A DNA stretch of 64,000 nucleotides from an uncultured Candidatus Saccharibacteria bacterium. Lineage in GTDB: Bacteria; Patescibacteriota; Minisyncoccia; Phycocordibacterales; JACOZG01. This document shows, piece by piece, positions 14,143 to 64,000 of this stretch. The notes below the pieces were generated by a model. The model worked only from the letters and a program-made list of their open reading frames with translations, was not told the origin of the DNA and searched no databases. The translations under genes were made by a program, and so were the position numbers. The first letter of the stretch is position 1; each line of letters opens with the position of its first letter. Where the stretch lies: positions 357,797 through 421,796 of the forward strand of contig CAZYLF010000001.1 of NCBI GenBank assembly GCA_964648765.1. The letters run 5' to 3'.

Positions 14143-14146
14143 AATA

Positions 14147-31316: not shown

Positions 31317-31317
31317 G

Positions 31318-31401
31318 TGCGCCGGGTAGGATTCGAACCTACGTAGCCCAGAGGGCGACAGATTTACAGTCTGTTGCGATTGACCACTCCGCCACCGACG
31401 C
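31318..31401 (-). tRNA. tRNA-Tyr (anticodon GUA), long variable arm
   Basis: Acceptor GCGTCGG/CCGGCGC. Anticodon stem-loop ACAGA-CTGTAAA-TCTGT. 13-nt variable arm. T-arm GTAGG-TTCGAAT-CCTAC. Confidence 0.85.
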
Positions 31402-31468
31402 TTATAACTCGCGATTTTAACTCTAACATTTTTTATAATTTTTGCCACGCTGTGCTATGATAGCCCCC

Positions 31469-31795: not shown

Positions 31796-31846
31796 AGCAT
31801 TTGCCTTTTCTCTTACTTTAAGCTAGGATATCTCCACAATCTGATT

Positions 31847-32005
31847 ATGTCACAAGATCAACTATTTAAATTAAATTGTTCCAAGTGCAAGCGCACTAAT
31901 TATTGGAGCCGCAAAAACCGCAAGTTAGTGGAGCGTAAAATCGAACTCAAGAAGTTCTGCAAATGGTGCAAAAAGCGCACCGTTCATAAAGAAGCTAAGA
32001 AATAG
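31847..32005 (+). CDS. rpmG: 50S ribosomal protein L33 (missed by the ORF track, 52 aa)
   Basis: MSQDQLFKLNCSKCKRTNYWSRKNRKLVERKIELKKFCKWCKKRTVHKEAKK. Shows the four-Cys zinc-ribbon pattern and NxxWSRKNR signature of L33. Confidence 0.8.
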   Translation: MSQDQLFKLNCSKCKRTNYWSRKNRKLVERKIELKKFCKWCKKRTVHKEAKK

Positions 32006-32035
32006 CTTGCCCGACCTCGGGCGGCGCGGTAAACT

Positions 32036-33698: not shown

Positions 33699-33735
33699 AA
33701 TTTAATTTTATATTAATAATTTTACATCAAAACTG

Positions 33736-33807
33736 TGCTCTCGGCAGGAATCGAACCTGCATCACCTCCTTCGGAGGGAGATATTCTATCCATTGAAATA
33801 CGAGAGC
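33736..33807 (-). tRNA. tRNA-Arg (anticodon CCG)
   Basis: Acceptor GCTCTCG/CGAGAGC, anticodon stem-loop TCTCC-CTCCGAA-GGAGG, T-arm GCAGG-TTCGATT-CCTGC. Confidence 0.85.
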
Positions 33808-33814
33808 TTACTTG

Positions 33815-33895
33815 TGCCGGAGGTGGGAGTCGAACCCACACCCCTTACGAGACACGATTTTGAGTCGTGCGCGTCTGCCATTCCGCCACTCCGGC
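33815..33895 (-). tRNA. tRNA-Leu (anticodon CAA), long variable arm
   Basis: Acceptor GCCGGAG/CTCCGGC, anticodon stem-loop CACGA-CTCAAAA-TCGTG, long variable arm, T-loop TTCGACT. Confidence 0.85.
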
Positions 33896-50392: not shown

Positions 50393-51379
50393 ATGAGTGG
50401 AAACTTTTGGGAAAAATTACCTAAGCCAATAATGGCGCTGGCACCGATGGCGAATGTCACCGACGTGGCCTTTCGACGTATCATCGCGAAGTATGGTAAG
50501 CCTCAAATAATGTGGACGGAGTTTGTCGCGGCTGATGGTTTGATGAGTAGGGGACGGGAAATTTTACTACACGATTTAAAATATTCTGAAAGTGAGCGGC
50601 CAATTGTGGCGCAACTTTTTGGTTCAAATTTAGAAAAGATGGAAGGTGCTGCCAAACTGGTGGCTGAGCTCGGCTTCGACGGCTTAGATATTAATATGGG
50701 TTGTCCGGATAAAACAATTGAGAAGCAATTGGCTGGCGCGGCCATGATTAAGAATCCGCAATTGGCGAGAGAGATTATTAGAGCAGCCAAAAGGGGAGTG
50801 AAAGCCGCGGGGCGCGAGATTCCGATCTCGGTGAAAACCAGATTGGGTTATAATAAAGATGAATTGGAAACTTGGTTGCCGGAACTTTTAGCTGAAGGTT
50901 TGGCCGCTCTCACCATCCACGCGCGGACACGTAAAGAGATGAGTAAAGTGCCGGCACGCTGGGAGCGAGTAAAGCGCGCGGTGGAAATTAGAGATGAATT
51001 AAAATCTAAAACTTTAATATTGGGTAATGGCGATGTAATAGATCTCACTGATGCAAGAAAAAAAGTAGCAGAAACCGGCTGCGACGGCGTGATGCTTGGC
51101 AGAGCGATATTTGGTAATCCATGGTTATTTTCAGCAGAAAATAATTCCGAGCGTAGTCGAGGAACTGAAGAAAAACTAAAAGTCATGCTTGAGCACACTA
51201 AACTCTTTGAAGAATTATTAGGTGGCGTAAAAAGCTTCGCGATTATGAAGAAGCATTACAAGGCGTATGTGAATGGCTTCCCCGGCGCTACCGAACTCCG
51301 CGCCAAATTGATGGAAACTAACAACTATAACGAAGTCACAGCCCTAGTTGACAGATTTCTGAAAGGTGATATAATCTGA
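50393..51379 (+). CDS. dus: tRNA-dihydrouridine synthase
   Basis: 328 aa TIM-barrel flavoenzyme: ALAPMANVTDVAFRRI, LDINMGCPDK (catalytic Cys), HARTRKEMS. Confidence 0.85.
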   Translation: MSGNFWEKLPKPIMALAPMANVTDVAFRRIIAKYGKPQIMWTEFVAADGLMSRGREILLHDLKYSESERPIVAQLFGSNLEKMEGAAKLVAELGFDGLDINMGCPDKTIEKQLAGAAMIKNPQLAREIIRAAKRGVKAAGREIPISVKTRLGYNKDELETWLPELLAEGLAALTIHARTRKEMSKVPARWERVKRAVEIRDELKSKTLILGNGDVIDLTDARKKVAETGCDGVMLGRAIFGNPWLFSAENNSERSRGTEEKLKVMLEHTKLFEELLGGVKSFAIMKKHYKAYVNGFPGATELRAKLMETNNYNEVTALVDRFLKGDII

Positions 51380-51424
51380 AAAGTTATACGGAAACAGAAA
51401 GACCTTTAATTGAAAGGAAAATGA

Positions 51425-52393
51425 ATGTCTAACATCCGACGGTATGGACCATTTTCGGTGATTGCGTTACCAAGATTAAGTATGGATTGGGACGCATTTC
51501 TAAAGTCTGCGCCCAATCGCTCAATTGCACTCGATGGTGTGGTTAAGGGAGGGCCAAACTTTAACGAGCAGACCGCTCACATCAACTTCGATCACCACGA
51601 CAACGTGGTGAGGGAAGCGACTATGAGCACGGCAATGCAGGTTTTCTATGCCATCAAGGGTGGACTTATGCACTCGATGATTGGCTCTGATGGAAAAGTG
51701 TCAGCCATGATTCACATCAACGACACTGACCAAGACACTACTCTCGCTGTCTGGTATCTCCTCAACCACAAAAAGTTTGAGGGTACCCAGAGCATCCCAA
51801 CGATGAGTCGTCTTTTGGCGCTTACCGATCGTTTGGATATCACGGGTGGAGCATTCCCGATGAATCTTGAGGATTCACTGATCCGTAAACACTCTTGGGT
51901 CTTCAGGCCTTACACTGACTTGCGTAAGTCTGGTGAGTTGGCTCGAGCCTCAGCGGAGATGTTGCTCGACAATCTCGAGGCAATGCTCCATCGACTTGAT
52001 CAATTTGTAATGAATCAGGCCGAAGAAGTGGAGCTCGATATCCGCCATGAGGTGTACTATGACTCACCGGTCTACATGATTTACAACGAGATCGGTGGAA
52101 ACGAGGCGCGTTACCATCTCTTAAGTAAGGGAATGGATGCGTACATCTGCGAGGTGGCTACGCGACCAGATGGACGCAAGGTTTACACGGTTGGTCGTCG
52201 CTCGCGCTACATTCGTTTCCCCGTGCCAAAGCTTTACGCCGCGTTCAACGCTGTTGAGGGTTTTGCGCCAGGAGAAGGTTGGAATGGATCTGACATCATC
52301 GGCGGTGCTCCGCGGGCGAAGGGTAGCGGATTGTCTTGGGAGCAGATCCGCGACATTACGAACGAAGTTCTGAAAGGAGAAGGTGTACTATGA
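51425..52393 (+). CDS. hypothetical soluble protein (GC3-rich), first gene of an inserted two-gene cassette
   Basis: 322 aa with an Asp/His-rich N-terminal half (ALDGVVKGGPN, HINFDHHDNV, MIHINDTDQD), suggestive of a metal-binding phosphoesterase-like site but not assignable. SD GAAAGGAAAATGAATG. Confidence 0.45.
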   Translation: MSNIRRYGPFSVIALPRLSMDWDAFLKSAPNRSIALDGVVKGGPNFNEQTAHINFDHHDNVVREATMSTAMQVFYAIKGGLMHSMIGSDGKVSAMIHINDTDQDTTLAVWYLLNHKKFEGTQSIPTMSRLLALTDRLDITGGAFPMNLEDSLIRKHSWVFRPYTDLRKSGELARASAEMLLDNLEAMLHRLDQFVMNQAEEVELDIRHEVYYDSPVYMIYNEIGGNEARYHLLSKGMDAYICEVATRPDGRKVYTVGRRSRYIRFPVPKLYAAFNAVEGFAPGEGWNGSDIIGGAPRAKGSGLSWEQIRDITNEVLKGEGVL

Positions 52394-52650
52394 GAAGTAT
52401 TCCTGTATCGTTCCAACACAAAGGTGACGGGGCAGTCCATGTTTCGGTTCTTGGGAAAAGTGCCAGACCACTTGTGTCTGAGCACACTTGCGGACATGTG
52501 AGTTTTACTGGATACTCACTCCAGTTATCATGCCCCGGGTGCATGAGCACCAGGGGGCAGTCGTTCCGTCGTCTGGCAACGGATGCCGAGCTTGTGAGTG
52601 CTGGGCATGAAGTCGCCAAGTTCTTTCCAGTATTGCCAGTTAGTCCGTGA
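52390..52650 (+). CDS. hypothetical small Cys-containing protein, translationally coupled (ATGA) to the upstream gene
   Basis: Start is the internal ATG at 52390, read as MRSIPVSFQHKGDG, with SD GGAGAAGGTG. 86 aa. Contains HTCGH and CPGC. Confidence 0.4.
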   Translation: MRSIPVSFQHKGDGAVHVSVLGKSARPLVSEHTCGHVSFTGYSLQLSCPGCMSTRGQSFRRLATDAELVSAGHEVAKFFPVLPVSP

Positions 52651-52668
52651 ACCCCACAGACGTTGGCC

Positions 52669-52704
52669 GGGTCGTCGCAACGTGCGACGACCCGCTTTTT
52701 TTTA
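52669..52704 (+). terminator. strong rho-independent terminator (gggtcgtcgca ACG tgcgacgaccc plus T9) ending the cassette
   Basis: 11-bp GC stem followed by nine T. The -10 TATATAAT of dnaX follows directly. Confidence 0.8.
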
Positions 52705-52716
52705 TATAATCAAGTA

Positions 52717-53760
52717 ATGGGAGAAACTATTGCTTTATATCGTAAATACCGTCCGCGGAAGTTTAGCGAGGTAATCGGTCAAGATCATATCGTGGAGGCG
52801 TTAAGTCAGGCCACTAAAGGTGCTGGCTTAGCCCATGCTTATTTATTTATCGGTTCGCGCGGTACGGGTAAAACAAGTCTCGCCCGGATTTTATCTCGTG
52901 AGCTCGGCACCAATCCTGAAGATCTTTATGAAATTGATGGCGCTTCAAATCGTGGCATCGACGAGATCCGCGAACTCCGTGACGCGGCGCAAACTTTACC
53001 ATTTACTTCAGAAAAAAAAGTTTACATTATTGATGAGGTGCACATGCTTACCAAGGAGGCCTTCAACGCGCTTCTTAAAACTCTTGAGGAACCACCATCA
53101 CATGTGATTTTTATTCTTGCTACTACTGAGGGTCATAAAGTTCCGGAGACAATTATTTCGCGTTGCCAAACTTTTAATTTTAAAAAGCCAAGTATCAATG
53201 ATTTAGTAAAAGCAATTTTACGGATTGCTAAAGCGGAGAGTTGGAAGGTGGAGGCCGATGCGGCAGAGCTTTTAGCTATGCTTGGTGACGGCTCGTATCG
53301 TGACGCGGTGGGTATGCTCCAAAAAGTTACCACCGCACTCGTAGATAAAAAGCTAACAGCTGAAGAGGTAGCGCGACTCACTGGCGCACCAGGACTCCAC
53401 TTAGCTCGAGGTTTGGTGAGCGCTTTGGCCGACAATAGTCTGGAGTCAGCGCTTAAGATAATTAGTGAAGTAGCAGATAATAATTATGATGCTAAAGTAT
53501 TTTTAAAAATGGTTTTACGCTTAGTGCGTTTAATAATGATTATTAACTTAGCACCAAAGCTCGCCCCAAACTTTTTGAAGGGATTAAGTGATGATGAGGT
53601 TAAATTTTTAAAGGAGACGGCACTCAAACCCGCTTCTGCTGCCTTCTCTAAAACTCTGCGGGAACTTTTGGTAGCTTATGATGATCTGGGTCGCTCATAT
53701 TTACCCACCGCACCACTCGAGCTTGCAATCATCAAACTTTTAGGCGAGTCTAAGGCATAA
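52717..53760 (+). CDS. dnaX: DNA polymerase III subunit gamma/tau (short form)
   Basis: Start at the internal ATG 52717 (MGETIALYRKYRPRKFSEVIGQDHI). P-loop GSRGTGKTS. DEVHMLT box. Sensor SRCQTF. Only about 347 aa. Confidence 0.85.
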   Translation: MGETIALYRKYRPRKFSEVIGQDHIVEALSQATKGAGLAHAYLFIGSRGTGKTSLARILSRELGTNPEDLYEIDGASNRGIDEIRELRDAAQTLPFTSEKKVYIIDEVHMLTKEAFNALLKTLEEPPSHVIFILATTEGHKVPETIISRCQTFNFKKPSINDLVKAILRIAKAESWKVEADAAELLAMLGDGSYRDAVGMLQKVTTALVDKKLTAEEVARLTGAPGLHLARGLVSALADNSLESALKIISEVADNNYDAKVFLKMVLRLVRLIMIINLAPKLAPNFLKGLSDDEVKFLKETALKPASAAFSKTLRELLVAYDDLGRSYLPTAPLELAIIKLLGESKA

Positions 53761-53761
53761 G

Positions 53762-54970
53762 ATGCCGATAAGTTTAAAAAGTTTAAAAAAATTGCCAGAA
53801 GGGCCAGGGGTCTACTTTTTCAAAAAAGGAAAGGAGATTCTCTATATTGGCAAAGCCACCTCACTCCGCGACCGCGTGCGGAGTTATTTGGCCCGCGATG
53901 TGGCGGCCACGCGCGGGGTAAGAGTGGCAGGGTTACCACTAGTTTCTACGCGCGTAGATCACCTTACCACCGGCTCAGTGCTTGAGGCGCTGCTGCTTGA
54001 AGCTGAGTTAATAAAAAAACATCTCCCGCCGTTTAATACTAGAGAGAAGGATGATAAGAGTTTTTTGCATATTGTGATCACTGATGAATCTTGGCCTCGC
54101 GTTTTACTCGTGCGCGGAAAGGATTTAAAAGGTGAAAAAATTGTTTACGGCCCTTTCCCAAACGGTGGGGAATTAAAAAAAGCGATGGTGTTAATTAGAA
54201 AGATTTTTCCGTATCGCGATAAATGTCAGCCCTTCGACTCCGCTCAGGGCAAGCCTTGTTTTAACGCGCAAATTGGACTTTGCCCCGGGGTTTGTTCTGG
54301 TGCAATTGACCAGAAAACATACCGCAAACAAATTTCTCAACTGAAACTTTTCCTCTCTGGCAAACAAAAAAGTTTATATCGTGAACTTGCGCGCGAAATG
54401 AAGTTGTTAGTAGAAGGGCAAAAATTTGAAGAAGCCCAAATTGTTCGTGATCGCATCTTCTCGCTCAAACATATTCGTGATGTGGCGTTAATTGCAAGAG
54501 ATAAAGAGAATGAGCCATTAGAGCGCATTGAGGCTTACGACATTGCCCACATGAGTGGGCAAAATACGGTGGGAGTAATGACTGTGGTGGAGGGGGGTGA
54601 GTTAATGAAAAATGAATATCGAAAGTTTAAACTAAAAGGCGATAATAAGGATAAAACAAATGACACAGCAAATTTGCGTGAGATATTAACGCGCCGATTT
54701 GCTCATAATGAATGGCCAAGAGCTAAAATAATTGTGGTAGATGGCGGGGTGGCGCAAGTGAATGTGGCAAAAAAAGTAGTCAAAGAAAACAAAACAAACA
54801 TTTCAATTATTGGCGTAGTAAAAAATGATAAACATAAACCCACTCGATTAATTGGGGGTATTAAAATCTTAAATGATGAATTATCTAGGGCAATTTTGCT
54901 AGCCAACAGTGAGGCTCACCGTTTTTCCATTGCCTATCATAGGCAAATTCGTGGTAAAATAATTGGGTGA
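53762..54970 (+). CDS. UvrC-homologous excinuclease lacking the C-terminal RNaseH/HhH half (Cho-like)
   Basis: GIY-YIG (PEGPGVYFFKKGKEILYIGKATSLRDRVRSY). Cys cluster CPGVCSG. UvrBC-interaction region. Ends at 402 aa, whereas UvrC is about 600 aa. No uvrA or uvrB in the window. Confidence 0.65.
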   Translation: MPISLKSLKKLPEGPGVYFFKKGKEILYIGKATSLRDRVRSYLARDVAATRGVRVAGLPLVSTRVDHLTTGSVLEALLLEAELIKKHLPPFNTREKDDKSFLHIVITDESWPRVLLVRGKDLKGEKIVYGPFPNGGELKKAMVLIRKIFPYRDKCQPFDSAQGKPCFNAQIGLCPGVCSGAIDQKTYRKQISQLKLFLSGKQKSLYRELAREMKLLVEGQKFEEAQIVRDRIFSLKHIRDVALIARDKENEPLERIEAYDIAHMSGQNTVGVMTVVEGGELMKNEYRKFKLKGDNKDKTNDTANLREILTRRFAHNEWPRAKIIVVDGGVAQVNVAKKVVKENKTNISIIGVVKNDKHKPTRLIGGIKILNDELSRAILLANSEAHRFSIAYHRQIRGKIIG

Positions 54971-56043
54971 ATCCGAGTGACGATTCTCGTTTGAGAGATA
55001 AGGAAGTGAACCCATTAATTTTTTGGGGTGTAATCACGGTCGCTTTGGCAGGTTCATTACTTTTAATTTTAAACGCCACGGGGGTGAGCGGTGGAGTTTA
55101 TGCTTTGCTTTTGGTGCCCATTGTTGCCTACTTGGTGATTATGGGATTTTTCCTCATGTATTTGTCGCGTTTAAATCGTGAGCGCAACAAACTACTTTCT
55201 GAACGGATTGGGGTTGAGCAAAATCGCGCTGAAGAATTTGCCAAACTTAATAAAGAACTCTCCGATTATGCCAAACAACTTTTTGATAAAGACTTCGAGT
55301 TAACCTTAGCAAACAAGCGTTTGCAAAGTTTGGAGCAAGCCAAATCCAAATTTATTTCTGTTACTACCCACCAACTCCGCACCCCGCTCTCGGCCATCAA
55401 GTGGACATTCCACATGTTGCTAAAAGAGAATTTGGGTAAAGTTACAAGTGAACAAAAAGATTTTCTTCAAAAAGGTTATGACAGCACCCAGCGCATAATC
55501 TCAATCGTAAATGATTTATTAAATGTGGATTATATTGAGGCGGATAAATCTGACTACAATTACATCCCAACTAAAATTAGCGAACTTATTGAGGGTGTGA
55601 TTTTTGAATTTACCACTCCAGCCGAGTCTAAAAAAATTGACCTAAAGTTAATTAAACCTCAAAACGTGTTGCCTGAAGTTACGTTGGATCCAGTAAAGAT
55701 CTCGATGGTGTTAGAAAATCTAATTGACAATGCGATAAAATATTGCCCAGATAAGGGTAAGGTTACTGTTTATCTTAAAGATGATAGAATTAATACCGCC
55801 CAGGGTAGTGTGGAGGTGGTAGTGGCCGACACGGGCATTGGCATACCCTCGTCGGATCGTGATAAAATCTTTCATCGGTTCTTTAGAGCGCCAAATGCTA
55901 TTAAAGTAAAAACCGATGGTTCGGGTCTTGGGCTATTTATTGCCAAAGATATTATTGAAAAGCATGGTGGTCAGATATGGTTTGAGAGTAAAGAGGGTGA
56001 GGGTTCATCATTTCACTTTACCTTACCGCTTAATAGGCACTAA
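54967..56043 (+). CDS. sensor histidine kinase (two TM helices, HisKA + HATPase_c)
   Basis: H-box TTHQLRTPLSAIKW, N-box ENLIDNAIKYCP, G-boxes DTGIGIP and GSGLGLFIAKDIIEKHGG. Confidence 0.8.
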   Translation: MNPSDDSRLRDKEVNPLIFWGVITVALAGSLLLILNATGVSGGVYALLLVPIVAYLVIMGFFLMYLSRLNRERNKLLSERIGVEQNRAEEFAKLNKELSDYAKQLFDKDFELTLANKRLQSLEQAKSKFISVTTHQLRTPLSAIKWTFHMLLKENLGKVTSEQKDFLQKGYDSTQRIISIVNDLLNVDYIEADKSDYNYIPTKISELIEGVIFEFTTPAESKKIDLKLIKPQNVLPEVTLDPVKISMVLENLIDNAIKYCPDKGKVTVYLKDDRINTAQGSVEVVVADTGIGIPSSDRDKIFHRFFRAPNAIKVKTDGSGLGLFIAKDIIEKHGGQIWFESKEGEGSSFHFTLPLNRH

Positions 56044-56073
56044 TTTTATATTAAAAATTTAAAAAATAATTTT

Positions 56074-56457
56074 ATGGATGCAGAAGCAAAAAAATACAAA
56101 GTTTTAATTATTGAGGATGATGAATTTTTACGTTCGCTTACCGCTAAACGCTTAGAGAAGGAGGGTTATGCAGTGGAGGTGGGTGTGGATGGCGAGAGCG
56201 GTGTGGCTCAAGCTGAAAGCAAAAAGCCAGATTTAATTTTACTCGACCTCTTACTCCCAGGACTTGATGGTTTTGAGGTTCTTAAGCGTGTGCGCGCCAA
56301 CGATGCTCTTAAGGAGACCCCGGTAATCATCTTTTCAAACCTTGGACAAAAAGAGGACATTGAACGAGCTAAGGGTTTGGGAGCTAACGACTTTTTAATT
56401 AAAGCCAACTTTACTCTTGATGATGTGGTCGGAAAGATCAAATCTTTTCTTAAGTAG
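56074..56457 (+). CDS. stand-alone response-regulator receiver domain (CheY-like, no output domain)
   Basis: 127 aa: KVLIIEDDEFLRSL, phospho-acceptor region LILLDLLLPGLDG, conserved T/K region IIFSNLGQ...K. Confidence 0.8.
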   Translation: MDAEAKKYKVLIIEDDEFLRSLTAKRLEKEGYAVEVGVDGESGVAQAESKKPDLILLDLLLPGLDGFEVLKRVRANDALKETPVIIFSNLGQKEDIERAKGLGANDFLIKANFTLDDVVGKIKSFLK

Positions 56458-56460
56458 TTT

Positions 56461-57429
56461 ATGGCATTGATTCGAGTTGGTGTGGTGCGAGGAGGACCAG
56501 GACACGAGTATGACGTGTCGCTTAAAACTGGACAAAGTGTGCTTAAGCATCTCAATTCGGAAAAGTATCAATCCAAAGATATTTTGATTACTCGCGATGG
56601 CACTTGGCATTTAAATGGCATGGAGACTACGCCGGATCGTTTGGTGCCGCAGGTGGATGTTTTTTTTAACGCTATGCATGGTGAGTATGGAGAGGATGGT
56701 CAGGTGCAAGCGTTGTTTGACGACCTTAGCGTGCCTTACACTGGGTCTGGGCGCTTGGCTTCAAGTTTGGCGATGAACAAACAACTCACCAAAGAGGCGC
56801 TTGAAGTGGCGGGGTTTAAAATGGCGCCAGGGCAAGTGGTGAGTAGGGAGGATGATATCCCGGTGAAGATTCAGCAAATCTTTTTTAAGATGGCACCGCC
56901 GTGGATTGTGAAGCCGCTAGATTCTGGTTCATCGGTCGGGCTCGGGTATGCACTCACCGTGAGTCAGTTGGCGGAGGCGATTATTGATTCATTAAATTAT
57001 TCGGGCCAAGTTTTAGTTGAGCGGTATATCAGAGGTAAAGAGGCCACTTGCGGCGTGGTAGATAACTTCAGAAATCATGAGGTGTATGCTTTGCCACCGA
57101 TTGAGATAAGAAAGCCGGCCGGGCACAAGGTGTGGAATTATGAGTTTAAATATAATGGCCAAACGGCAGAAATTTGCCCTGGCAATTTTACAGATGCGGA
57201 AAAGCGCGAACTTGCCGAAGCCGCAATTAAGATTCATCAAATTTTAGGTTTGAGGCATTACTCACGTTCGGACTTTATTGTGACGCCCAAAGGCATTTAT
57301 TTTTTGGAAGTTAACACCTTGCCGGGCATGACTTCAGAATCCCTTTTGCCAAAAGCCCTCGACGCTGTGGGTTGCTCATACCCGCAATTCCTTGATCACG
57401 TTATTTCTCTCGCGCTTAGTAAAAATTAA
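56461..57429 (+). CDS. ddl: D-alanine--D-alanine ligase
   Basis: 322 aa ATP-grasp enzyme: RVGVVRGGPGHEYDVSL, PVDVFFNAMHGEYGEDG, C-terminal EVNTLPGMTSESL. Confidence 0.85.
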   Translation: MALIRVGVVRGGPGHEYDVSLKTGQSVLKHLNSEKYQSKDILITRDGTWHLNGMETTPDRLVPQVDVFFNAMHGEYGEDGQVQALFDDLSVPYTGSGRLASSLAMNKQLTKEALEVAGFKMAPGQVVSREDDIPVKIQQIFFKMAPPWIVKPLDSGSSVGLGYALTVSQLAEAIIDSLNYSGQVLVERYIRGKEATCGVVDNFRNHEVYALPPIEIRKPAGHKVWNYEFKYNGQTAEICPGNFTDAEKRELAEAAIKIHQILGLRHYSRSDFIVTPKGIYFLEVNTLPGMTSESLLPKALDAVGCSYPQFLDHVISLALSKN

Positions 57430-57432
57430 GGA

Positions 57433-57759
57433 ATGTCGCTTATTAGCAAAAAATGTGTAGTGTGTGAGATGGGCGGGAGTCCACTTGCAAAAGGTGAGGT
57501 GGATAAATTTTTGAGTGAGGTAAAAAATTGGCAGGTGGCCGATGATTATATAAAGATTAAGAGAGAGTGGAAGTTTAAAAATTTTAAAGAGGCCCTAAAT
57601 TTCACCAATCAGGTAGGAAATTTGGCCGAAGATGAGGGACATCATCCAGATATCGCTCTTGGTTGGGGGTATGTCAAAATTGACCTGACTACTCATGCGG
57701 TTAAGGGTCTTTCAGAAAACGACTTTATTTTAGCCGCAAAAATTGATAGGCTTGAATAG
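57433..57759 (+). CDS. pterin-4a-carbinolamine dehydratase (PCD/DCoH)
   Basis: 108 aa with the signature EDEGHHPDIALGWGYVKIDLTTHAV. Confidence 0.8.
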   Translation: MSLISKKCVVCEMGGSPLAKGEVDKFLSEVKNWQVADDYIKIKREWKFKNFKEALNFTNQVGNLAEDEGHHPDIALGWGYVKIDLTTHAVKGLSENDFILAAKIDRLE

Positions 57760-57771
57760 TAGCCCATATAT

Positions 57772-57844
57772 GGGCCGTTAGCTCATTTGGTAGAGCACCA
57801 CATTTGCAATGTGGGGGTGATCGGTTCGAATCCGATACGGTCCA
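57772..57844 (+). tRNA. tRNA-Ala (anticodon UGC)
   Basis: GGGCCGT acceptor with the G3:U70 Ala identity pair. Anticodon stem-loop CCACA-TTTGCAA-TGTGG. T-arm ATCGG-TTCGAAT-CCGAT. Confidence 0.9.
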
Positions 57845-57856
57845 CTCGATTCACTC

Positions 57857-57957
57857 TTGACAAAATATGATAGTATGATACGTTAGCATAGGATTAACTT
57901 GAGCTTTGTGGCTCAAGGAAAGTACATTTCAAAACTAAACAAAGCAAGGAGAAAATT
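57857..57957 (+). promoter_or_regulatory. recurrent promoter/operator plus leader module, copy A (TTGACA-N4-ATGATAGTATGATA ... AGGATTAACTTGAGCTTTGTGGCTCAAG hairpin ... AAGGAG)
   Basis: Shares the TTGACA + ATnATAGTATGmTA core with 17727 and 58764. Shares a 25-nt leader block (57891..57915) with 58797..58822. Confidence 0.45.
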
Positions 57958-58692
57958 ATGGCAACAGATGGCCCCACTCCGACTCCATGTAACCCCGACA
58001 TTTTTAAGAAAGGCAGAGGTGTTTGTGTTGTCCGTGGTAGTTCCAACGCTGTAGAGCGTTGGGTACGGTCCGTCGCTAAGAAAGCTAATGCTCAAGTTGA
58101 TTGGCATTACAGTGGAGGAATGGCGAGTGTCCTTCATCTTGGTGACGATGAAAGTCGTCAGCGAGTTTTGAACGCTATCCACGAGCTCAAGGGCAAACTC
58201 GACGGACACATTATTAGCGTTGACGGCCCCGCTCTTTACAGGGATGGAGTCGAAGGTTCAAATGTTACCGCTGCGGTCGTTCGCAAAGACAATGGGGAAA
58301 TTGTCCTTGTTGATCCGGAAGTCATTGCAGTAATTGGTGCCGTTGGTAAGTACAACTGCAAAAATACTCTTGAGATTAACTCTGATCGCGTTGATCATTT
58401 CAAGCAACGATTGACGGAGCGCGGTATGACTGCCGACGAGGCGGTAATCGTACTTTTAAACGTTGACGATGTTCACGGTGGTCCACTTGCTGACGTACTG
58501 ATGCCCGGTCACGACTGGCAGGAAATACGTGACAGGGGTGAAGTTCCTTTCGCCAGAGGACTTGCCGTGCGGAATGGCATTCAGCAAGCACTTGGTATCT
58601 TCGATGAGGATGCTGCGATGAAGCTCAAGGGTATGACTGAGGTGGCTGTTGTGGTTGTAGACCATGGAGTCGCCGAGGTGTTTGCGGCCTAG
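57958..58692 (+). CDS. hypothetical acidic soluble protein (244 aa, GC3-rich)
   Basis: ATG with SD AAGGAG. No TM or recognisable catalytic motif. Residues ...VLLNVDDVHGGPLADVLMPGHDWQEIRD.... Has its own terminator. Confidence 0.45.
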   Translation: MATDGPTPTPCNPDIFKKGRGVCVVRGSSNAVERWVRSVAKKANAQVDWHYSGGMASVLHLGDDESRQRVLNAIHELKGKLDGHIISVDGPALYRDGVEGSNVTAAVVRKDNGEIVLVDPEVIAVIGAVGKYNCKNTLEINSDRVDHFKQRLTERGMTADEAVIVLLNVDDVHGGPLADVLMPGHDWQEIRDRGEVPFARGLAVRNGIQQALGIFDEDAAMKLKGMTEVAVVVVDHGVAEVFAA

Positions 58693-58722
58693 ATGTTAAG
58701 TCCTTACAATTTTGTACACACA

Positions 58723-58759
58723 AGCGCACGACCCTCGGGGACGTGCGCTTTTTTCTTTT
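58723..58759 (+). terminator. rho-independent terminator (agcgcacg ... cgtgcgct plus T6CT4)
   Basis: 8-bp outer stem with an inner ccc/ggg extension, followed by TTTTTTCTTTT. Confidence 0.75.
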
Positions 58760-58763
58760 ACTA

Positions 58764-58865
58764 TTGACAAAGTATTATAGTATGCTACGATAGGGCAGGA
58801 TTAACTTGAGCTTTGTGGCTCTAAAAAGTACATTTTCATTTGGAACTCGAAAAAAGGAGACTTGC
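58764..58865 (+). promoter_or_regulatory. recurrent promoter/operator plus leader module, copy B (TTGACA-N4-ATTATAGTATGCTA ... AGGATTAACTTGAGCTTTGTGGCTC ... AAAGGAGA)
   Basis: Its 14-mer is identical to 17738..17751. The leader block is identical to copy A over about 25 nt. Confidence 0.45.
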
Positions 58866-59249
58866 ATGAACATTTCTCAAAAGATTGCCGAACTACACAG
58901 GCGCTTGGGAAAACACGTTAAGGTGTGGCATCACAAGAAGCTACTTGGCTTTATCCCAATTTTTTGGCCAGGAGGCTGGTTGTCAATTGATGAAGAAGAG
59001 AATAGTTGGTCTGTGATGCTTACTTCAAATAAACACACGCATCACCCATTCCTAGGTTCGGCTCTCGGAGCTGATTTTCAGAAAAGTGACGGTGAGCGTA
59101 AGATTGGGCCAGGTAATCTAACGGGAGCGTGGTTCACAATTCTTTCTATGTGGCCAGCAAAAAATGAGGATGAGGCTGTAAGAATTTTTAATACAGTGGC
59201 GTCAAAAATTAATGCAGCCTACGGCCATCGCATTCAACGCAACACTTAG
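58866..59249 (+). CDS. hypothetical small protein (127 aa, His/Trp-rich, GC3-rich)
   Basis: Start is the internal ATG at 58866, read as MNISQKIAELHRRLGKH, with SD AAAGGAGA 5 nt upstream. The track N-terminal extension overlaps the leader module. Confidence 0.4.
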   Translation: MNISQKIAELHRRLGKHVKVWHHKKLLGFIPIFWPGGWLSIDEEENSWSVMLTSNKHTHHPFLGSALGADFQKSDGERKIGPGNLTGAWFTILSMWPAKNEDEAVRIFNTVASKINAAYGHRIQRNT

Positions 59250-59277
59250 GTCTGAGAAAAGTCACAAAAACCGCTAG

Positions 59278-59312
59278 AGGTGTTTACTCACTAGCGGTTT
59301 TTCTTTGCCTTA
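59278..59312 (+). terminator. rho-independent terminator (aaccgctag ... ctagcggtt plus TTTTCTTT)
   Basis: 9-10 bp stem with a 13-nt loop and a U-tract. Confidence 0.7.
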
Positions 59313-59341
59313 TAGACTGATATAACCCCCTCGACTTACTT

Positions 59342-60403
59342 ATGGTACAATCGACTCATATGGAAACAAATAATCAGAAGGTGATTAGGATTTCGAAAAA
59401 GAAGTTGATTATTACACTAATTGTGTTGGTGATTGGGGCTTATATAGTTTTAAATTCACTTGGCACAGCAAGGATGAAGAGTGGTGTTGATTACGCGGAG
59501 AATGCCATGATGCCGAGTGGGGGTGGATCGTATGGTGGTGCCAATATTCCGGTATCAAGTGGGGTGATGCCAGATTATTACCCCTATCCATACCCCGAGC
59601 AGGACGACGTTACCGACACCAGAGAATTTTTGAAAACCTCGTATTCCGGAAATTTGAAGACGCGCGATGTGTCTGAAACAGCTGATGATGTTAAAAATAT
59701 TGTTCGCGATGTGGAAGGTCGCCTTGATAACTTTAATACTTCGGAAAAGTATAGTTACATTACTTTTGTGGTACCCAAAAGTCGTTTTGATGAATTTAAA
59801 AATCGGGTAGGGGATTTGGTGGGGGCCAAACTTTATGTTGAGAGCATTTCATCCCAAAATCTTTTAAACCAAAAGCAATCAATTGAAGGTCGCACTGAGA
59901 CAGCCGAGGAGGCTCTGGTTACTCTTGAAAAGCGTAAAAAGGATCTCGCTACCGCTCACGTGGCCACGCTTAACAATATTAAGAGTGAATTAACTGCGAC
60001 ACAAAGCAAATTAAATATTACAGAATCACAAATTCTTTTAACTGATGATCCGGGAGAGTCTGCGGCGCTTAGGAGCCAACTGGCCGTTTTACTTCAAACT
60101 CAAGCTGATTTGCTAGGGCGTCAAAGTGTTGAAAATCAAAATTTTGCTAATCAAAACAAGTGGATTGATCAGAGCATCGCTCAAACCAAAGCTCAATTAA
60201 CTAATCTTGATAAAGAAGATACCAAGTTTGCCAATAATATTGAAACGGTAAATGGCACGGTGAATATCCAATGGATCAGTGTTTGGGATTTAATTAAATT
60301 ATATTCGCCAATTAATCCAATTCTAATCATTATCATTGTTCTCCTCCTCGCCCGCTGGATCCTGGTCCGCAAAGGCTATCTCTCCCGAATCGAGTTTGTG
60401 TAG
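59342..60403 (+). CDS. membrane-anchored coiled-coil protein (N-terminal TM, long Gln/Leu-rich coiled coil, C-terminal TM; DUF4349-like architecture)
   Basis: 353 aa (or start at ATG 59360, 8 nt after a TACAAT box). Helices LIITLIVLVIGAYIVL and ILIIIIVLLLARWILV flank a roughly 250 aa coiled coil. Confidence 0.45.
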   Translation: MVQSTHMETNNQKVIRISKKKLIITLIVLVIGAYIVLNSLGTARMKSGVDYAENAMMPSGGGSYGGANIPVSSGVMPDYYPYPYPEQDDVTDTREFLKTSYSGNLKTRDVSETADDVKNIVRDVEGRLDNFNTSEKYSYITFVVPKSRFDEFKNRVGDLVGAKLYVESISSQNLLNQKQSIEGRTETAEEALVTLEKRKKDLATAHVATLNNIKSELTATQSKLNITESQILLTDDPGESAALRSQLAVLLQTQADLLGRQSVENQNFANQNKWIDQSIAQTKAQLTNLDKEDTKFANNIETVNGTVNIQWISVWDLIKLYSPINPILIIIIVLLLARWILVRKGYLSRIEFV

Positions 60404-60531
60404 AAGTTTGTAAATACTTATCAGACAGTCACACATTCAATACCTTGACATTCAATCTTGTTTATGATAGGGTAATTTTGGAGTCCAGTGTGCACTGGGC
60501 AATTAAATTTTTCCATAACCAGGAGAATCAA

Positions 60532-60792
60532 ATGCCTAAGGTCAAGAAAAGTGTGGAACATGAGGCACAAGCAAAGCTTGATGCTGTGATCAAGCAGTAT
60601 GGCCCACAGATCAAAACCATCACCAAAGAGATTGGCCAGAACTTTCGATGTTTTGGAGGAGGTAGCGTCAACATGGACAACCCAATCTCAAGAGCACTTG
60701 TGAATGATCCACTCCAATTTGCAGCAGCTGTGGACGTTGAACAGGTGGTCACTTTTGTCATTTTTCGTTTATTCGAGAAGACGCACATTTAG
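60532..60792 (+). CDS. hypothetical small protein (86 aa)
   Basis: Start is the internal ATG at 60532, read as MPKVKKSVEHE, with SD AGGAGAA. Upstream promoter TTGACATTCAATcttgtttatgaTAGGGT and a leader hairpin ccagtgtgcactgg. Confidence 0.4.
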   Translation: MPKVKKSVEHEAQAKLDAVIKQYGPQIKTITKEIGQNFRCFGGGSVNMDNPISRALVNDPLQFAAAVDVEQVVTFVIFRLFEKTHI

Positions 60793-60811
60793 ATCTTAGC
60801 GCAGACAATCG

Positions 60812-60850
60812 AGGCGCCAGATAGATATACCTATCTGGCGCCTTTTCATT
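60812..60850 (+). terminator. rho-independent terminator (aggcgccagatag ATATA cctatctggcgcct plus TTTTCATTTTC)
   Basis: 13-14 bp stem with a U-tract, 30 nt before tRNA-Val. Confidence 0.75.
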
Positions 60851-60883
60851 TTCAATAAAATACGGTTTACTTAATGAGCTAAA

Positions 60884-60958
60884 GGCACCCTTAGCTCAGC
60901 TGGTTAGAGCGTACGATTCACATTCGTAAGGCCTCAGGTTCGATTCCTGAAGGGTGCA
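60884..60958 (+). tRNA. tRNA-Val (anticodon CAC); its 3' half is the likely integration target of the downstream element
   Basis: Acceptor GCACCCT/AGGGTGC. D-arm GCTCAGCTGGTTAGAGC. Anticodon stem-loop TACGA-TTCACAT-TCGTA. T-arm TCAGG-TTCGATT-CCTGA. Confidence 0.9.
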
Positions 60959-62428
60959 CCGTTGGGGAATTTCCACGTCCTGGTGGACCCGCTGAAACGG
61001 TTTCGCGGCTTCAATTAAGAGTTTTTTGTCCGTGAGCAAAAGGTTCGATCCGACTGTTTGAGCGATCAGCCGCTTGAGTTCCGTCGTGCCGTGCTGGAAC
61101 CAGAATACGGCCCTATCGTTGAATGATTTGAGATTTTGAAGGGGTTCGATCCTATCCCCCTGATCCTCCGGTGCCCTCGCCAAAAGTTGTTCCAACCGCA
61201 GCCGCTCCTGCTGCAGGCCCTGCCGCTTAGTTGCAAATTCAGCATCATCGATGAGATCCCGCAAGCGCAGGCTGGTGAGGTTGTCCAACTGACGCACCGT
61301 GTCCGCAAGAATCTGATGCCGGTTATCCATTTCACGCTTGGCCTGTTCAATCCGTTCGGATTCGGTCTGCTTCACCATGCGCAGGGCCCAGTCATGCAGA
61401 GAAGCGGGGAGGATGATCGACTCCAGGAAGGCGAGAAACTGCCGTTCCAATTCGCGGCCTTCAATCGAGGGCTGGCGGCAATAGCAGCGCGCATGGCGAT
61501 GGGTGCAATGATAGTAAACATAACGGTGCCCATGGCGATTGGTCTTATGTTCGGCTGTAATGGCCAGTCCGCAGGCTCCGCATCGTATAAGGCCCCTAAA
61601 TGGGAAATCCTGGTGCTTGGGGCGCGGAGGGGTGGGTCGTCCCAACAAGGCCTGCACGCGCTCAAACTCATCAATCGACACCATCGCCGGATGACGGCCC
61701 ACATGCGTCTGTCCTTCCCAACGGATCAATCCAGCATAAAAGGGATTGGAAATCAGTTTATAGATGGCGCTCAAGGCCATCGCATTGCCCCCAACTCGCT
61801 TCTTTTGAGCGGTGCGGAGCCCCCATTCGTCGCGTGCCTGCCGGTGGAGCTGGCTGGGGCTGGCTACACCGGTGAGCATCCCATCCCACAGCTTGCGAAC
61901 CACATCAAATCGATCGGGGTCGGCGACGATGGTTTTGGCTGTCGAGTCTATGCGATAGCCGATCGGCACATTTCCCGGTCGCCACCCCTTGAGCACCTTC
62001 GTGCGATTGCCACGTTTAACATTCTCGCTCAAGTTGTCCACATAATATTTGGAATAGCCGAAGATGATCGACAGCATGAACTTGCCTTGCGAATTGTTTT
62101 CAAAACTGAAATTGGAAAAGCGGAGGTCTTTGAGGACTTGCTGGTCGAGCATATAGATAATCTTGCCACCATCGATGGAATTGCGGGCCAGCCGGTCGGG
62201 GTGCCAAGCAATAATGCCATCGGCCTCACGACGTTCCAAGCGTTTGAGCATCGCATCAAAAACGACCCTGCCCGGCGTTTTGGCACTGTAGGCCTCCTCG
62301 AAGATTTCCACGATTTGATCGTTGTCGTTCCGCAGCGCGCGCTGTAGTTCCATGCGCTGCGATTCAATCGACAGCACCTGGCGATCCTCTGATTCTGTGG
62401 ACTTGCGACAGTAGGCGAAGTACCTCAT
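60896..62428 (-). CDS. large serine recombinase (integrase) of the integrated element
   Basis: 510 aa, GC-rich. Resolvase-type N-domain with catalytic Ser ([24 protein letters not shown]). Recombinase domain, Cys ribbon ([12 protein letters not shown]...[13 protein letters not shown]) and coiled coil. The last 21 codons are antisense tRNA-Val (...[17 protein letters not shown]). Confidence 0.85.
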
Positions 62429-63332
62429 TGAAAGGGATGATTAGGCTTCCATCGACGCCACCTGGCTATTTGCGTCTGTGGCAGTGCCTTTGACGCAATA
62501 GCACGCTGTTGATGAGCAGGAATTATTCGATGCGAGCGCGCCAGCATAGAGCGCCGTTGCCTTTGTGTCAAAGCGCGACGGTTGATAAATCGGATATCTC
62601 GATGCCGCTGTCTATACCGCCTGCGTTTGTTTGGTGACTTCCGCATGACGGTAGATTATGAGCCATGGACCGGTGGATCCCAGGATGCCAACTTTGTCTG
62701 CGCCGACAAGTTGCCTCGCCTTCATATGTTGCAAGTCCGAATTCAGAGGTCTGGTAGACGAGCATAACAAAAAGGGGGACCGCATCGCGGCCCCTCTGAA
62801 AGAGAACTCATCGGATTTAGCTACCGAGCTGTCAGCTCGCCGACGCGATTCCGAGCCAACCATGGAGGGAGCCGAATACCTCGAACTGGCAAATAACGTT
62901 CAACGGCTTTACGGTTTGGCGAATGACATGAAAAACGTGAATTAATGCAAATCACGACCTCGAACCGTGCGCTGATCGGAAAAAATGTTGTGGTTAAGCT
63001 CTCGAAACCGTTTGCGACCCTCGCCGAACACGCCGAATCAACAGAATGTGACCCTTATCGAGCCAGACCTCGAACTTTGGAAATAATCGCACGCTGGTTA
63101 CGCGACACACCCAAGGAGTCTCGGAAGCCTTTCGACCTCCTGCTCAATGCGAGCGCTGCGGAACGTGCATCAATTGCTGATTCGCAGCGTTCGTCCGCGC
63201 CGCCGGCATCGCTGGCTGCTTTCATGTGCCGCTTCGCACTGCCAGGAACCCGGCCTAGCCCAGATACTCACGCACCTCGCCGAATCTCTTTCGCCATACG
63301 GGCCGAAGTACCAATCGCTTGGCGCGGGGACA

Positions 63333-63677
63333 TCACGAGCGAAACGTGAGGTCAGATTTTGAAATGTCAACATCAAATATTCGGTGTGCTCCTCGTACCG
63401 GGATGGGAGCGATGGCTCCTATATGCGCCAGAACCAATGCGAAGGCCCCCTCATAAAACTTGCAGCGTGCTTCGGCCTCGTCAGCTTTGTTCATCGGCCG
63501 GCAATCAATTAGCTCTGCGACCGCAAGCGCAAATCCCGCTGGAGCAATCGGTGGGCTCTTTGAGGAAACGATGAGAAGCGGGCCGCGGTACGTTGTTGAC
63601 CACGTGCGGGTCTCAATCGTCTTCTGACCCGAGGCGACAAGATTTGCCCAAGGCTGCTTTAGTGAGATTGCCTTCAT
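63333..63677 (-). CDS. ASCH (PUA-like) domain protein, element cargo
   Basis: 114 aa. MKAISLKQPWANLVASGQKTIETRTW matches the ASCH N-terminal beta-barrel signature. ATGA overlap with an upstream partial ORF. Confidence 0.55.
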   Translation of the reverse strand: MKAISLKQPWANLVASGQKTIETRTWSTTYRGPLLIVSSKSPPIAPAGFALAVAELIDCRPMNKADEAEARCKFYEGAFALVLAHIGAIAPIPVRGAHRIFDVDISKSDLTFRS

Positions 63678-64000
63678 GTTGTCCGCTTAACCTGCCCAGT
63701 TGGCAATCCTAGGGTTTGCAGAGTTTGCCTCGTTGACTTGTCCTGAACAGTCTGAAGAAACGACCCAGCCCAATGTTTGATCATTCCAATCCAAGGAGCA
63801 TATGAATCAGTTTCATGGCCAAGTTGCCGCGCATCCGAGGGTGAAAAGTGGCCATGCGATAGCACGATCCCGGACATTTCGGCAACACCCGCCCCCTCGA
63901 CCCGGCGAGCAAATCGAACGAGCGCGCGAAAGTCGGCTTGCAGCGCGTTAGTAAGCGACGAAAGCGATCGAAAGGCGTCAAACGCATAATCGCGAGCTCG
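63674..64000 (-). CDS. hypothetical protein, N-terminal part outside the window (element cargo, coupled to the ASCH gene)
   Basis: An open reverse-strand frame runs from the window edge to the stop at 63674 (...GIVLSHGHFSPSDARQLGHETDSYAPWIGMIKHW...). Its stop overlaps the ASCH start. Confidence 0.3.
   Translation of the reverse strand, partial: RARDYAFDAFRSLSSLTNALQADFRALVRFARRVEGAGVAEMSGIVLSHGHFSPSDARQLGHETDSYAPWIGMIKHWAGSFLQTVQDKSTRQTLQTLGLPTGQVKRTT

Follow-up and report, generated by a model that had tools for sequence, protein, structure and literature searches.

How does an integrated element come to end at the very tip of an intact tRNA gene, with its own recombinase gene reading on, antisense, through most of that tRNA? 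The question is raised by one edge of a 64,000-nucleotide stretch of DNA (hereafter the window) from an uncultured Candidatus Saccharibacteria bacterium (assembly GCA_964648765.1, contig CAZYLF010000001.1, positions 357,797 to 421,796), where a tRNA-Val gene is followed directly by foreign DNA bearing a gene for a large serine recombinase (LSR), here termed LSR1. The answer that we regard as highly probable is that a mobile island of about 30.5 kb has inserted at the extreme 3' end of tRNA-Val, that the attachment site of the LSR (attP) lies inside its own open reading frame (ORF), and that the gene is split on integration. The features needed for the argument are listed below, with the strand where one applies.

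60885-60958 (+): tRNA-Val(CAC), intact, supported by ARAGORN, Rfam, and acceptor pairing; one half of the attachment site
60959-64000: first 3.0 kb of the ~30.5-kb island, from contig reconstruction and the position of the P arm
60956-60961: attL crossover zone, made up of the last two acceptor base pairs GC (60956-57), the discriminator A (60958), and CCG (60959-61)
60959-62428 (-): element-encoded body of LSR1, without C-terminal extension, supported by Pfam, alignments, and the AlphaFold2 (AF2) model of the homologue P0002
60896-60955 (-): chance read-through tail of LSR1, antisense to tRNA-Val and including the stop codon (60896-98)
60959-60985 (-): P' arm of what was attP, lying within the LSR1 ORF and encoding the disordered linker '..DVEIPQR(C)'
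60937-60943 (+): T-arm segment GGTTCGA (antisense TCGAACC), the proposed zinc-ribbon-domain (ZD) motif of the tRNA half-site

The LSR1 ORF, 60896-62428 on the reverse strand, encodes 510 aa and runs antisense through tRNA-Val, with an ATG start at 62428 that agrees with its homologues. Pfam matches were obtained to Resolvase (PF00239, 2.4e-21, residues 4-148), Recombinase (PF07508, 7e-06), and Zn_ribbon_recom (PF13408, 3.3e-11); in the 'YCRKS' motif, Y6, C7, R8, and S10 are invariant across 81 homologues, and the AF2 model of P0002, which is 64% identical, displays long coiled-coil helices at residues 342-385 and 395-421. By its catalytic serine, Recombinase domain, zinc ribbon, and coiled coil, LSR1 is thus a large serine recombinase, as a preliminary description of this DNA had proposed, and from this domain content it is predicted to catalyse integration by recombining attP with attB, while excision would call for a recombination directionality factor (RDF), of which no candidate emerged. 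The NCBI call of the gene (P0121, 493 aa) begins at Val18 and so omits the first 17 residues including Ser10 (62377-62428); an exact look-up of the 510-aa protein and of the 493-aa NCBI version found neither on record.

The last 20 codons of LSR1 (60899-60958) are antisense to positions 15-74 of tRNA-Val. The overlap reported in the preliminary description therefore stands, although it extends over about 80% of the tRNA and not only over its 3' half. Among relatives, the read-through tail varies from 1 to more than 100 codons (1 aa in L083, 3 in L060, and 36 in L098) and differs in sequence as well; hence the tail itself carries no signal, which resides instead in the point at which the ORF enters the tRNA. 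A stop-free run of 20 codons is expected by chance at (61/64)^20 ~0.38 and is unremarkable. The C-terminal peptides ESNLRP, DSNPRS, or ESNSRP, in which LSR1 and some other proteins of the family end, are the antisense translation of the T-arm.

The tRNA belongs to the host. ARAGORN places tRNA-Val(CAC) at 60885-60960 and Rfam at 60885-60958 (69.9 bits against a gathering score of 29), its acceptor stem pairs at 7/7 positions (GCACCCT with AGGGTGC), and it is host-derived through at least position 70-72. The host itself is a Patescibacterium: every named homologue of its DnaX (52663-53757) comes from Patescibacteria, the best match showing 87% identity. Host DNA (1-60884) has 43.5% GC, with 3-kb windows averaging 0.434 (SD 0.025, maximum 0.506), and GC rises to 54.9% over 60959-64000, with 400-bp peaks of 0.59. 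The compositional jump after the tRNA claimed earlier is accordingly real, at ~4.6 standard deviations (SD), although the figure of about 60% given for it was overstated.

The near junction was traced in independent assemblies. An exact look-up of the ASCH-domain protein encoded beyond LSR1 led to a 47-kb Logan contig (L001) identical to window positions 64000-60902, and a host protein led to a second (L002) identical to 50395-60920; the two overlap by 19 identical nt, and a single NCBI contig of 553,057 bp is the recorded source of the host proteins and the island proteins alike. A contig from ENA (L083) carries the LSR at 95% nucleotide identity over 2141 nt, joined this time to tRNA-Gly(CCC), beyond which lies 41%-GC DNA with a DivIC gene. 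Set side by side, with slashes delimiting the shared TGC, the junctions read ...CCCCAACGG/TGC/ACCCTT... for tRNA-Val and ...CCCCAACGA/TGC/GGGTAG... for tRNA-Gly. Homology between the window and L083 breaks at 60956, inside the last 3 nt of the tRNA, and so the tRNA is host DNA and the element brings no tRNA 3' half, supplying at most the discriminator and the 3' trailer of tRNA-Val. With this second copy and the contig reconstruction described below, the island is a real mobile element: the earlier claim of a foreign element integrated at tRNA-Val and extending past the window is borne out, whereas its companion claim, that the core lies well inside the tRNA and the element restores the 3' half, is contradicted by the divergence of L083 only in the last 3 nt and by a centre of dyad symmetry at 60956-60957. 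The crossover probably lies at tRNA positions 71-72 or at the discriminator.

Why the integrase should read into the tRNA at all becomes apparent from its family. Homologues of LSR1 number in the thousands at ~55% identity and are ~530 aa long; most possess a KPF motif, then 18 residues, a (D)VRT motif, and ~30 residues more, which together form a conserved C-terminal extension. Full-length homologues end in Ala-Ala in 62 of 113 cases and in Val-Ala in 8 more, alanine making up 6.8% of residues, and this frequent -AA terminus may be a C-terminal degradation tag. The extension is missing in 11 of the 80 loci of the family in GTDB. All 11 come from Saccharibacteria, Parcubacteria-type groups, Moraniibacteriota, Bdellovibrionales, or unnamed metagenome-assembled genomes (MAGs), and in ten of them the ORF enters a tRNA (Gln, Tyr, Ser, Leu, Gly, or Pro) antisense from its 3' end. 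The eleventh, L069 from Patescibacteria, has a short tail and no called tRNA; at L069 11430-11560 its ORF stops at the usual switch point beside DNA (GGGTTCAACAGGTAGAACC...) that may represent a degenerate or unusual target. The other 69 loci, mostly from Acidobacteriota, Proteobacteria, and Planctomycetota, are full-length with no tRNA nearby. In every fused locus, the tRNA begins at KPF+13 codons.

The two forms also coexist among near-identical proteins. Members of the 90%-identity cluster of P0074 are identical through '...KPFRKWCETAGSTD(M/W)R' and then continue in one of two ways: either with the full-length sequence 'AFMKDVRTFVEKSDPIIIQMVAAIRQLSSHKGV' (P0261 and P0263; 'AFMKDVRTF...') or with a short tail ('GYQDSNLES...', 'PQPDLNRC', or 'RG'). 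At the DNA level, the first two of these tails were confirmed as tRNA-Trp (L098) and tRNA-Glu (L106), respectively; the DNA switch points read ...TGGCGG/GCCTTTATGAAGGACGTTCGAACC in L096, ...ATGCGG/tRNA-Trp in L098, and ...ATGCGG/tRNA-Glu in L106. The P0014 cluster displays the same mix of full-length and tail-switched forms. Since clusters of at least 90% identity hold both, the full-length gene represents the unrecombined (attP) state and the fused genes are attL junctions, which places attP inside the LSR ORF. It is for this reason, not foreseen in the preliminary description, that the ORF reads through into the tRNA.

An intragenic attP is further supported by a dyad-symmetry scan of 66 full-length genes, with offsets counted after KPF. 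A single dominant peak was found at offsets 37-38, with 5.62/12 complementary positions against 3.0±0.5 elsewhere (z=5.1), while a minor peak corresponds to the VRT-encoding GTTCGAAC palindrome itself. In the window, the dominant centre falls on 60957-60956, the last two acceptor base pairs (tRNA positions 71-72). Around it, position 35 is G in every gene, and the pairs Y36-R39 and T26-A49 are each formed in 80% of genes; the P' arm is further supported by conserved inner inverted-repeat positions (T..TTCC / GG.A) about the centre, and the equivalent stretch of P0002 (residues 475-492) is modelled with a low predicted local distance difference test score (pLDDT). Codon choice in the VRT motif is likewise constrained: GTT makes up 47/50 Val codons against a background of 17% (p~1e-32), CGA or AGA makes up 50/65 Arg codons against 19% (p~5e-24), and threonine is never ACG against 36%, the p values being inflated by the shared ancestry of the sequences.

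The VRT codons in turn suggest what the enzyme may recognise in its host. The heptamer TCGAACC, whose copy in attP also specifies the conserved 'VRT', reads antisense to GGTTCGA, a conserved stretch made up of the end of the T-stem and the T-loop. TCGAA stands at KPF+51 in 10 of 13 fused junctions, the other three having a variant or no T-loop, and at KPF+56 in 34 of the 68 full-length genes listed; TCGAACC starts at offset 56 in attP but at 51 in the tRNA arm, so that its copy in attP is 5 bp more distant from the centre. A ZD-type motif would thus lie ~16-24 positions from the centre in attP versus 11-19 in attB. A 5-bp shift of the ZD motif between attP and attB has been described for the sites of the LI integrase, and the heptamer shift fits that LSR site model (PMC3783163). 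It is inferred from this spacing that the enzyme reads the T-arm GGTTCGA, which is universally conserved, as the outer (ZD) motif of the host half-site. The core at the tRNA tip is TGC in the window element and L083 (Val, Gly) and CGG in L096, L098, and L106 (Trp, Glu), and these 2-3 nt are probably the only tRNA-specific element of the target; together, T-arm recognition and such a short core would explain near-identical integrases at different tRNAs.

The far end of the island was reached by walking Logan contigs through protein ids from cluster look-ups to contig position 31,699, and the island was reconstructed from L001, L094, and L107. The far junction falls at contig position 30,542, equivalent to window position ~91,443, giving an island of ~30,485 bp with 52.6% GC. 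In L107 the junction reads '...ATCGGGGG/CCTCAAGGGACGACGTTCGAATCTTTTTGGA...', and in longer context on the LSR strand '...GAACCTATCGGGGG/CCTCAAGGGACGACGTTCGAATCTTTTTGGATTATTGG...', the slash marking the junction; it is identical in a contig from a second sample. The 31 nt past this mark are 31/31 identical to the attP arm of L084, which carries the full-length relative P0002 (64% protein identity), and the frame there encodes 'SRDDVRIFLDYWLTP' versus 'SRDDVRIFLEYFLTP' at P0002 residues 493-507 (13/15, E=6e-07). The distal end of the island is therefore marked by an orphan LSR C-terminal fragment, on the same strand as LSR1 and at the opposite end, and not by a tRNA fragment. No distal repeat of 20-50 nt from the tRNA 3' end, as anticipated in the preliminary description, came to light: BLAST of the tRNA region found no tRNA-Val repeat in the 12.8 kb of element nearest the tRNA, ARAGORN called no tRNA or tmRNA gene on the remaining element out to the far junction, and no direct repeat of the tRNA 3' end was present within 10 kb in 10 related fused loci. 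The lack of a long att repeat is expected for a serine integrase. The attR sequence of the island is ...GAACCTATCGGGGGCCTCAAGGGACGACG...; the predicted attP is ...GGAAATTCCCCAACGGTGC(G)CCTCAAGGGACGACGTTCGAATC... and the predicted empty site ...GAAGGGTGC(A/C)CCGATAGGTTCGGCTC....

The sequence of events is then as follows. The attP lies 13 codons past KPF, where a linker joins the last hairpin of the zinc ribbon to a C-terminal extension of two helices. In the AF2 model of P0002 (mean pLDDT 86), a canonical LSR ends in a β-hairpin at 460-474, followed by a low-confidence linker (475-492), where the inner arms and core of attP are encoded, and then by confident helices at 493-503 and 507-533. On integration, the LSR gene is split, the complete canonical enzyme staying beside the tRNA and reading on antisense until a chance stop, with the fragment for the extension ending up on the same strand at the other end of the island. 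As attP is inside the ORF, integration swaps the two-helix extension for chance tRNA-antisense codons, and given the domain layout, only this accessory extension is removed from an otherwise complete enzyme. By analogy with the integration-dependent immunity of phage BPs (discussed below), the swap may, speculatively, alter the stability or directionality of the integrase.

Several observations weigh against this account. For the present element, the evidence on the att sites comprises the dyad at offsets 37-38 in 66 relatives, the lack of repeats, and a difference of 1 nt between attL and attR at the presumed core. Exchanging 2 bp between the two ends does not restore an attP that stays in frame. 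When the ends are aligned in register, attR shows GG where a GC core is expected, implying a C discriminator in the native tRNA; out of register, if the exchange took place within the CGG that both junctions share, the resulting attP is 1 nt short. The orphan fragment is unlike the extension of relatives beyond its first ~15 codons. This copy may be locked or decaying, or its attL and attR may stem from different events. The DNA past the far junction has 62% GC (62-64% over L107 1-1150, beyond contig position 30.55 kb), carries a trypsin-like protease gene, and is not host-like; possibly it belongs to another foreign segment. The tRNA-Val junction is not spanned by any Logan contig, that of the host stopping at 60920 and that of the element starting at 60902, and neither an excised circle nor an empty site was found, a scan of JGI metagenomes for the attP arm and the predicted empty site giving no match. 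Around 85% of the family is chromosomal, in isolates too, yet remains in the unsplit state amid conjugative-element genes, which the model does not explain. Not every fused copy is a simple whole-element integration either, given that the LSR gene with exactly 150 nt upstream (starting GTTGTGGAAGAAGG) is swapped as a cassette (L110, L113, L115, L117, and L096): a backbone of at least 19 kb, 99.9% identical and encoding DnaN, an ABC transporter, and a 646-aa recombinase, occurs with LSR plus tRNA-Trp, with LSR plus tRNA-Glu, or with no LSR. Finally, recognition of the T-arm and a regulatory role for the C-terminal swap are both putative. In an attempt to reconcile attL with attR, every 2-nt core position was tried, and each costs one mismatch or the loss of 1 nt.

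Because neither Logan contig spans tRNA-Val, an assembly chimera had to be weighed, in which contigs from two organisms became fused in the MAG through a conserved tRNA-Val and nothing was integrated. Both contigs do break inside the tRNA, GC changes sharply, and the DNA past the far end is not host-like either. Such an artefact is nonetheless very unlikely, for the 5' part of the tRNA, present only in the host contig, and the 3' part, present only in the element contig, form a perfect 7-bp acceptor stem, the contigs share 19 identical nt, and host and island proteins lie on the one 553-kb NCBI contig; moreover, independent contigs span the equivalent junction (L083; L098, L100, L102, L104, and L106 of another clade; and 10 GTDB MAGs), at the same codon in all of these independently assembled loci. 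Still less credence can be given to a classical tRNA island, whose attP would carry the tRNA 3' half, with integration inside the tRNA and a 20-50 nt repeat at the other end. An intact tRNA with the element beginning right after it is what this scenario would produce, and it is the usual pattern of islands with tyrosine integrases (PMC7192596), but no tyrosine-integrase domain is recorded for any called island gene, neither the 12.8 kb nearest the tRNA nor the relatives hold a tRNA-derived repeat, ARAGORN calls neither a tRNA nor a tmRNA gene on the rest of the element as far as its distal junction, the homology of two copies at different tRNAs stops in the last 3 tRNA nt, and the far end holds an LSR gene fragment in place of a tRNA fragment.

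A prophage or an integrative and conjugative element (ICE) using the LSR as its integrase is improbable, if the least so of the alternatives. In its favour are a CHAP endolysin-like protein and one weak tail-protein match in the island, distant LSR relatives at the ends of IMG/VR proviruses, closer relatives flanked by T4 coupling protein, ArdC, and ParB-like genes, and large ORFs of 774, 304, 288, and 334 aa without a match, which leave room for a very divergent module. Against it, no capsid, portal, terminase, relaxase, or type IV secretion system (T4SS) gene was recorded or found across the 30.5 kb, the content of which is mostly defence genes, an insertion sequence (IS), and truncated genes. 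That the overlap is itself functional, the tRNA-encoded tail working in the recombinase or antisense transcription regulating tRNA-Val, might be suggested by an ORF open for 20 codons across the tRNA; with an open frame so readily obtained by chance, and with tails that differ wholly in length (1 to >100 aa) and sequence, set only by the tRNA that was hit, this idea is extremely unlikely. The island with an intragenic attP at the tip of tRNA-Val is thus the preferred reading, its split architecture being well supported and its mechanism still inferential.

A wider proposal may be built upon it, tentatively and with considerable doubt. A widespread LSR family would land on the T-arm and 3' tip of any tRNA gene, with a 2-3 nt core choosing among tRNAs; the integrases of conjugative elements of Acidobacteriota and Proteobacteria could thereby insert DNA into Patescibacteria and Bdellovibrionales, which are very distant from them and have small genomes, and loss of the -AA-tagged two-helix domain would serve as a switch of stability or directionality between the integrated and free states.

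Comparison with known systems brings out what is peculiar to LSR1. It shares Resolvase, Recombinase, zinc-ribbon, and coiled-coil regions with phage-type large serine integrases (Listeria A118/LI, phiC31, Bxb1, and SPbeta SprA), together with a gene that borders the integrated element, the lack of long att repeats, and a putative dyad attP whose outer motif is 5 bp nearer the centre in the host site. Phage-type enzymes, however, use one specific site, usually a protein gene, with attP outside the ORF, whereas LSR1 has attP in its ORF and the 3' tips of various tRNAs as targets, and its family bears an extra ~40-aa two-helix C-terminal extension that is removed by integration. Islander-type tRNA islands are set apart by a tyrosine integrase, none being recorded here, and by a displaced tRNA 3' fragment, which is lacking at the distal end. 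The SSV1-type archaeal integrases are tyrosine recombinases with a long core shared with the tRNA, whose split leaves a truncated, incomplete enzyme. As in these, attP lies inside the integrase ORF and integration parts the gene to the two ends of the element; unlike them, LSR1 is a serine recombinase in which every canonical domain is retained and nothing but an accessory extension is lost. C-terminal ssrA-like tags have been reported in the phage BPs system. The integration-dependent immunity of this mycobacteriophage likewise places attP in the 3' part of a coding sequence, with integrated and free proteins differing in their C-terminus (PMC4557955). There it is the repressor gene that is split, and integration is carried out by a tyrosine recombinase, in contrast to the present case, where the serine integrase itself is split; a degron role for the frequent -AA terminus in the LSR1 family is putative. 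ORF14 of the filamentous phage phiRSM, a resolvase-like small serine recombinase, lacks both the zinc ribbon and the coiled coil, has a single tRNA-Ser as its target, and involves no gene splitting. What it has in common with LSR1 is that a serine recombinase inserts DNA at the 3' end of a tRNA. It is cited in PMC7192596. Serine integrases are otherwise not known to target tRNA genes (PMC7192596), the text of the LSR survey of Durrant et al. (2022) makes no mention of tRNA (PMC10083194), and a literature search for an intragenic attP in serine integrases returned nothing relevant; an LSR gene cut by its own integration does not seem to have been described for large serine recombinases.

Serine integrases are major tools of genome engineering and are thought to be single-site and tRNA-avoiding. 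A clade recognising a feature common to all tRNA genes would, if real, have a landing pad in every organism and show, by a natural example, how attB specificity can shrink to one generic motif and a core of 2-3 nt. With attP inside the ORF, the enzyme would have two integration-state-dependent forms, making control of directionality or stability testable with two defined proteins, and the island would represent a concrete route for defence islands into Patescibacteria, whose mobile elements are poorly known. For annotation, a simple rule follows: wherever an LSR ORF finishes antisense within a tRNA, attL can be placed to within a few nt.

Within the family, the neighbourhoods of the 80 GTDB loci (L003-L082) have, upstream in 47-64 loci, a divergent helix-turn-helix gene (~119 aa) and genes of 174 aa and 444 aa, the latter two of unknown function, as well as a T4 coupling protein in 38 loci, ArdC in 16, and ParB-like genes in 12, which indicates that most relatives of LSR1 sit, unsplit, in conjugative elements. 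IMG/VR yielded only relatives of at most 37% identity. A distant clade (~30% identity; L088-L093) at the ends of 30-60 kb IMG/VR proviral contigs also reads antisense into tRNA-Gly or tRNA-Thr, so the tRNA-tip habit is broader than the LSR1 family. A second complete element, sought through DnaN (P0272), was not obtained, the cassette pattern described above being seen instead, and a terminal-overlap test found none of the contigs L084, L096, and L097 to be circular. Orphan fragments were sought in the fused loci as well: a hidden Markov model (HMM) of the C-terminal tail had no significant match in their six-frame translations, the tail being too poorly conserved, and a motif scan of the upstream 10 kb gave no convincing fragment, so that those elements are longer than 10 kb or organised differently.

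Two other ideas were set aside. A junction at the stop codon of the full-length genes, suggested by homology ending 4 nt past the stop in L023, L028, and L038, was dropped, as other pairs remain homologous downstream and the end is better read as a boundary between module and cargo. An obligate pairing of LSR1 with an adjacent second LSR, in the manner of CcrAB, was rejected with only 2 of the 80 loci having one.

Four further features of the island lie within the window.

62685-62945 (+): ORF of 86 aa, function unknown, called as a gene on Logan contigs
62945-63349 (+): ORF of 134 aa, function unknown, from the ORF list and Logan contig calls
63333-63677 (-): ASCH-domain gene (Pfam ASCH, 6e-10), last gene of a Qat-like operon
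63674-64000 (-): 3' part of a QatC-like (QueC-family) gene of 469 aa in full, running past the window

The two small ORFs have no Pfam, PADLOC, or PHROG match. The ATG of the ASCH gene overlaps the stop codon of the QatC-like gene by 4 nt (ATGA), in agreement with the coupling to a partial upstream ORF noted in the preliminary description, that ORF now being identified as QatC-like. The full QatC-like protein from L094 matches PADLOC QatC at 1.6e-80 and QatA is matched at 1.7e-71, while QatB has a precomputed PF28083 match only, with no PADLOC or local Pfam match. QatA, QatB, and QatC are adjacent in that order on one strand (L094 1670-6030 plus window 63333-64000). The KAP NTPase QatA, QatB, and the QueC-like QatC are thus shared with the QatABCD system, but its fourth gene is the TatD-like nuclease QatD, whereas the fourth gene here encodes an ASCH protein without a PADLOC match, which may be a variant effector in the place of QatD.

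From the tRNA end, the gene order is LSR1, the two small ORFs, ASCH, QatC, QatB, QatA, and then a PDC-S06 ATPase (4.5e-174). Further cargo comprises, in the same direction, a second LSR (P0129), a ThsB/PDC-S66-like TIR protein, the CHAP endolysin-like protein, the weak tail-like match, a PycTIR/CAP12-like TIR protein, IS66 TnpB with a transposase, and several ORFs without a match. P0129 (433 aa; L094 10001-11302), ~9 kb into the island, belongs to a different LSR family whose members are 490-565 aa long, and it therefore looks C-terminally truncated; in L096 and L005 a member of its family stands directly upstream of an LSR1-type gene, an arrangement shown by just 2 of 80 loci overall. A short prokaryotic Argonaute (pAgo) C-terminal fragment of 148 aa adjoins the far junction (L107 1272-1718, reverse strand; PADLOC 6.6e-51; C-terminal third only) and appears to be a truncated Argonaute gene. 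Whether the element was a prophage, an ICE, or an island had been left undecided in the preliminary description. Across 30.5 kb no capsid, portal, or terminase gene was recorded or found, and no relaxase, coupling protein, or T4SS gene was recorded; the scan for phage structural and conjugation genes yielded no complete module, phage character being limited to the CHAP endolysin-like protein and the one weak tail match, with several ORFs lacking any match, and precomputed matches record no phage-integrase (tyrosine) Pfam domain for any called island gene. The most fitting description of the element is thus that of a defence island, possibly a mosaic, equipped with an integration module of the LSR type.

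On the host side, a GC-rich hairpin with perfect pairing and a run of T after it (GGCGCCAGATAG...CTATCTGGCGCC TTTT; 60812-60843) stands just upstream of tRNA-Val and looks like the terminator of the preceding host gene. Host tRNA clusters are found at 13872-14218 (Leu-Lys-Leu-Cys) and 31317-33895 (Tyr, Trp, and Arg-Leu), with no recombinase adjoining either within the window, and a GC bump of 0.525 at 12-14 kb overlaps the first of them.

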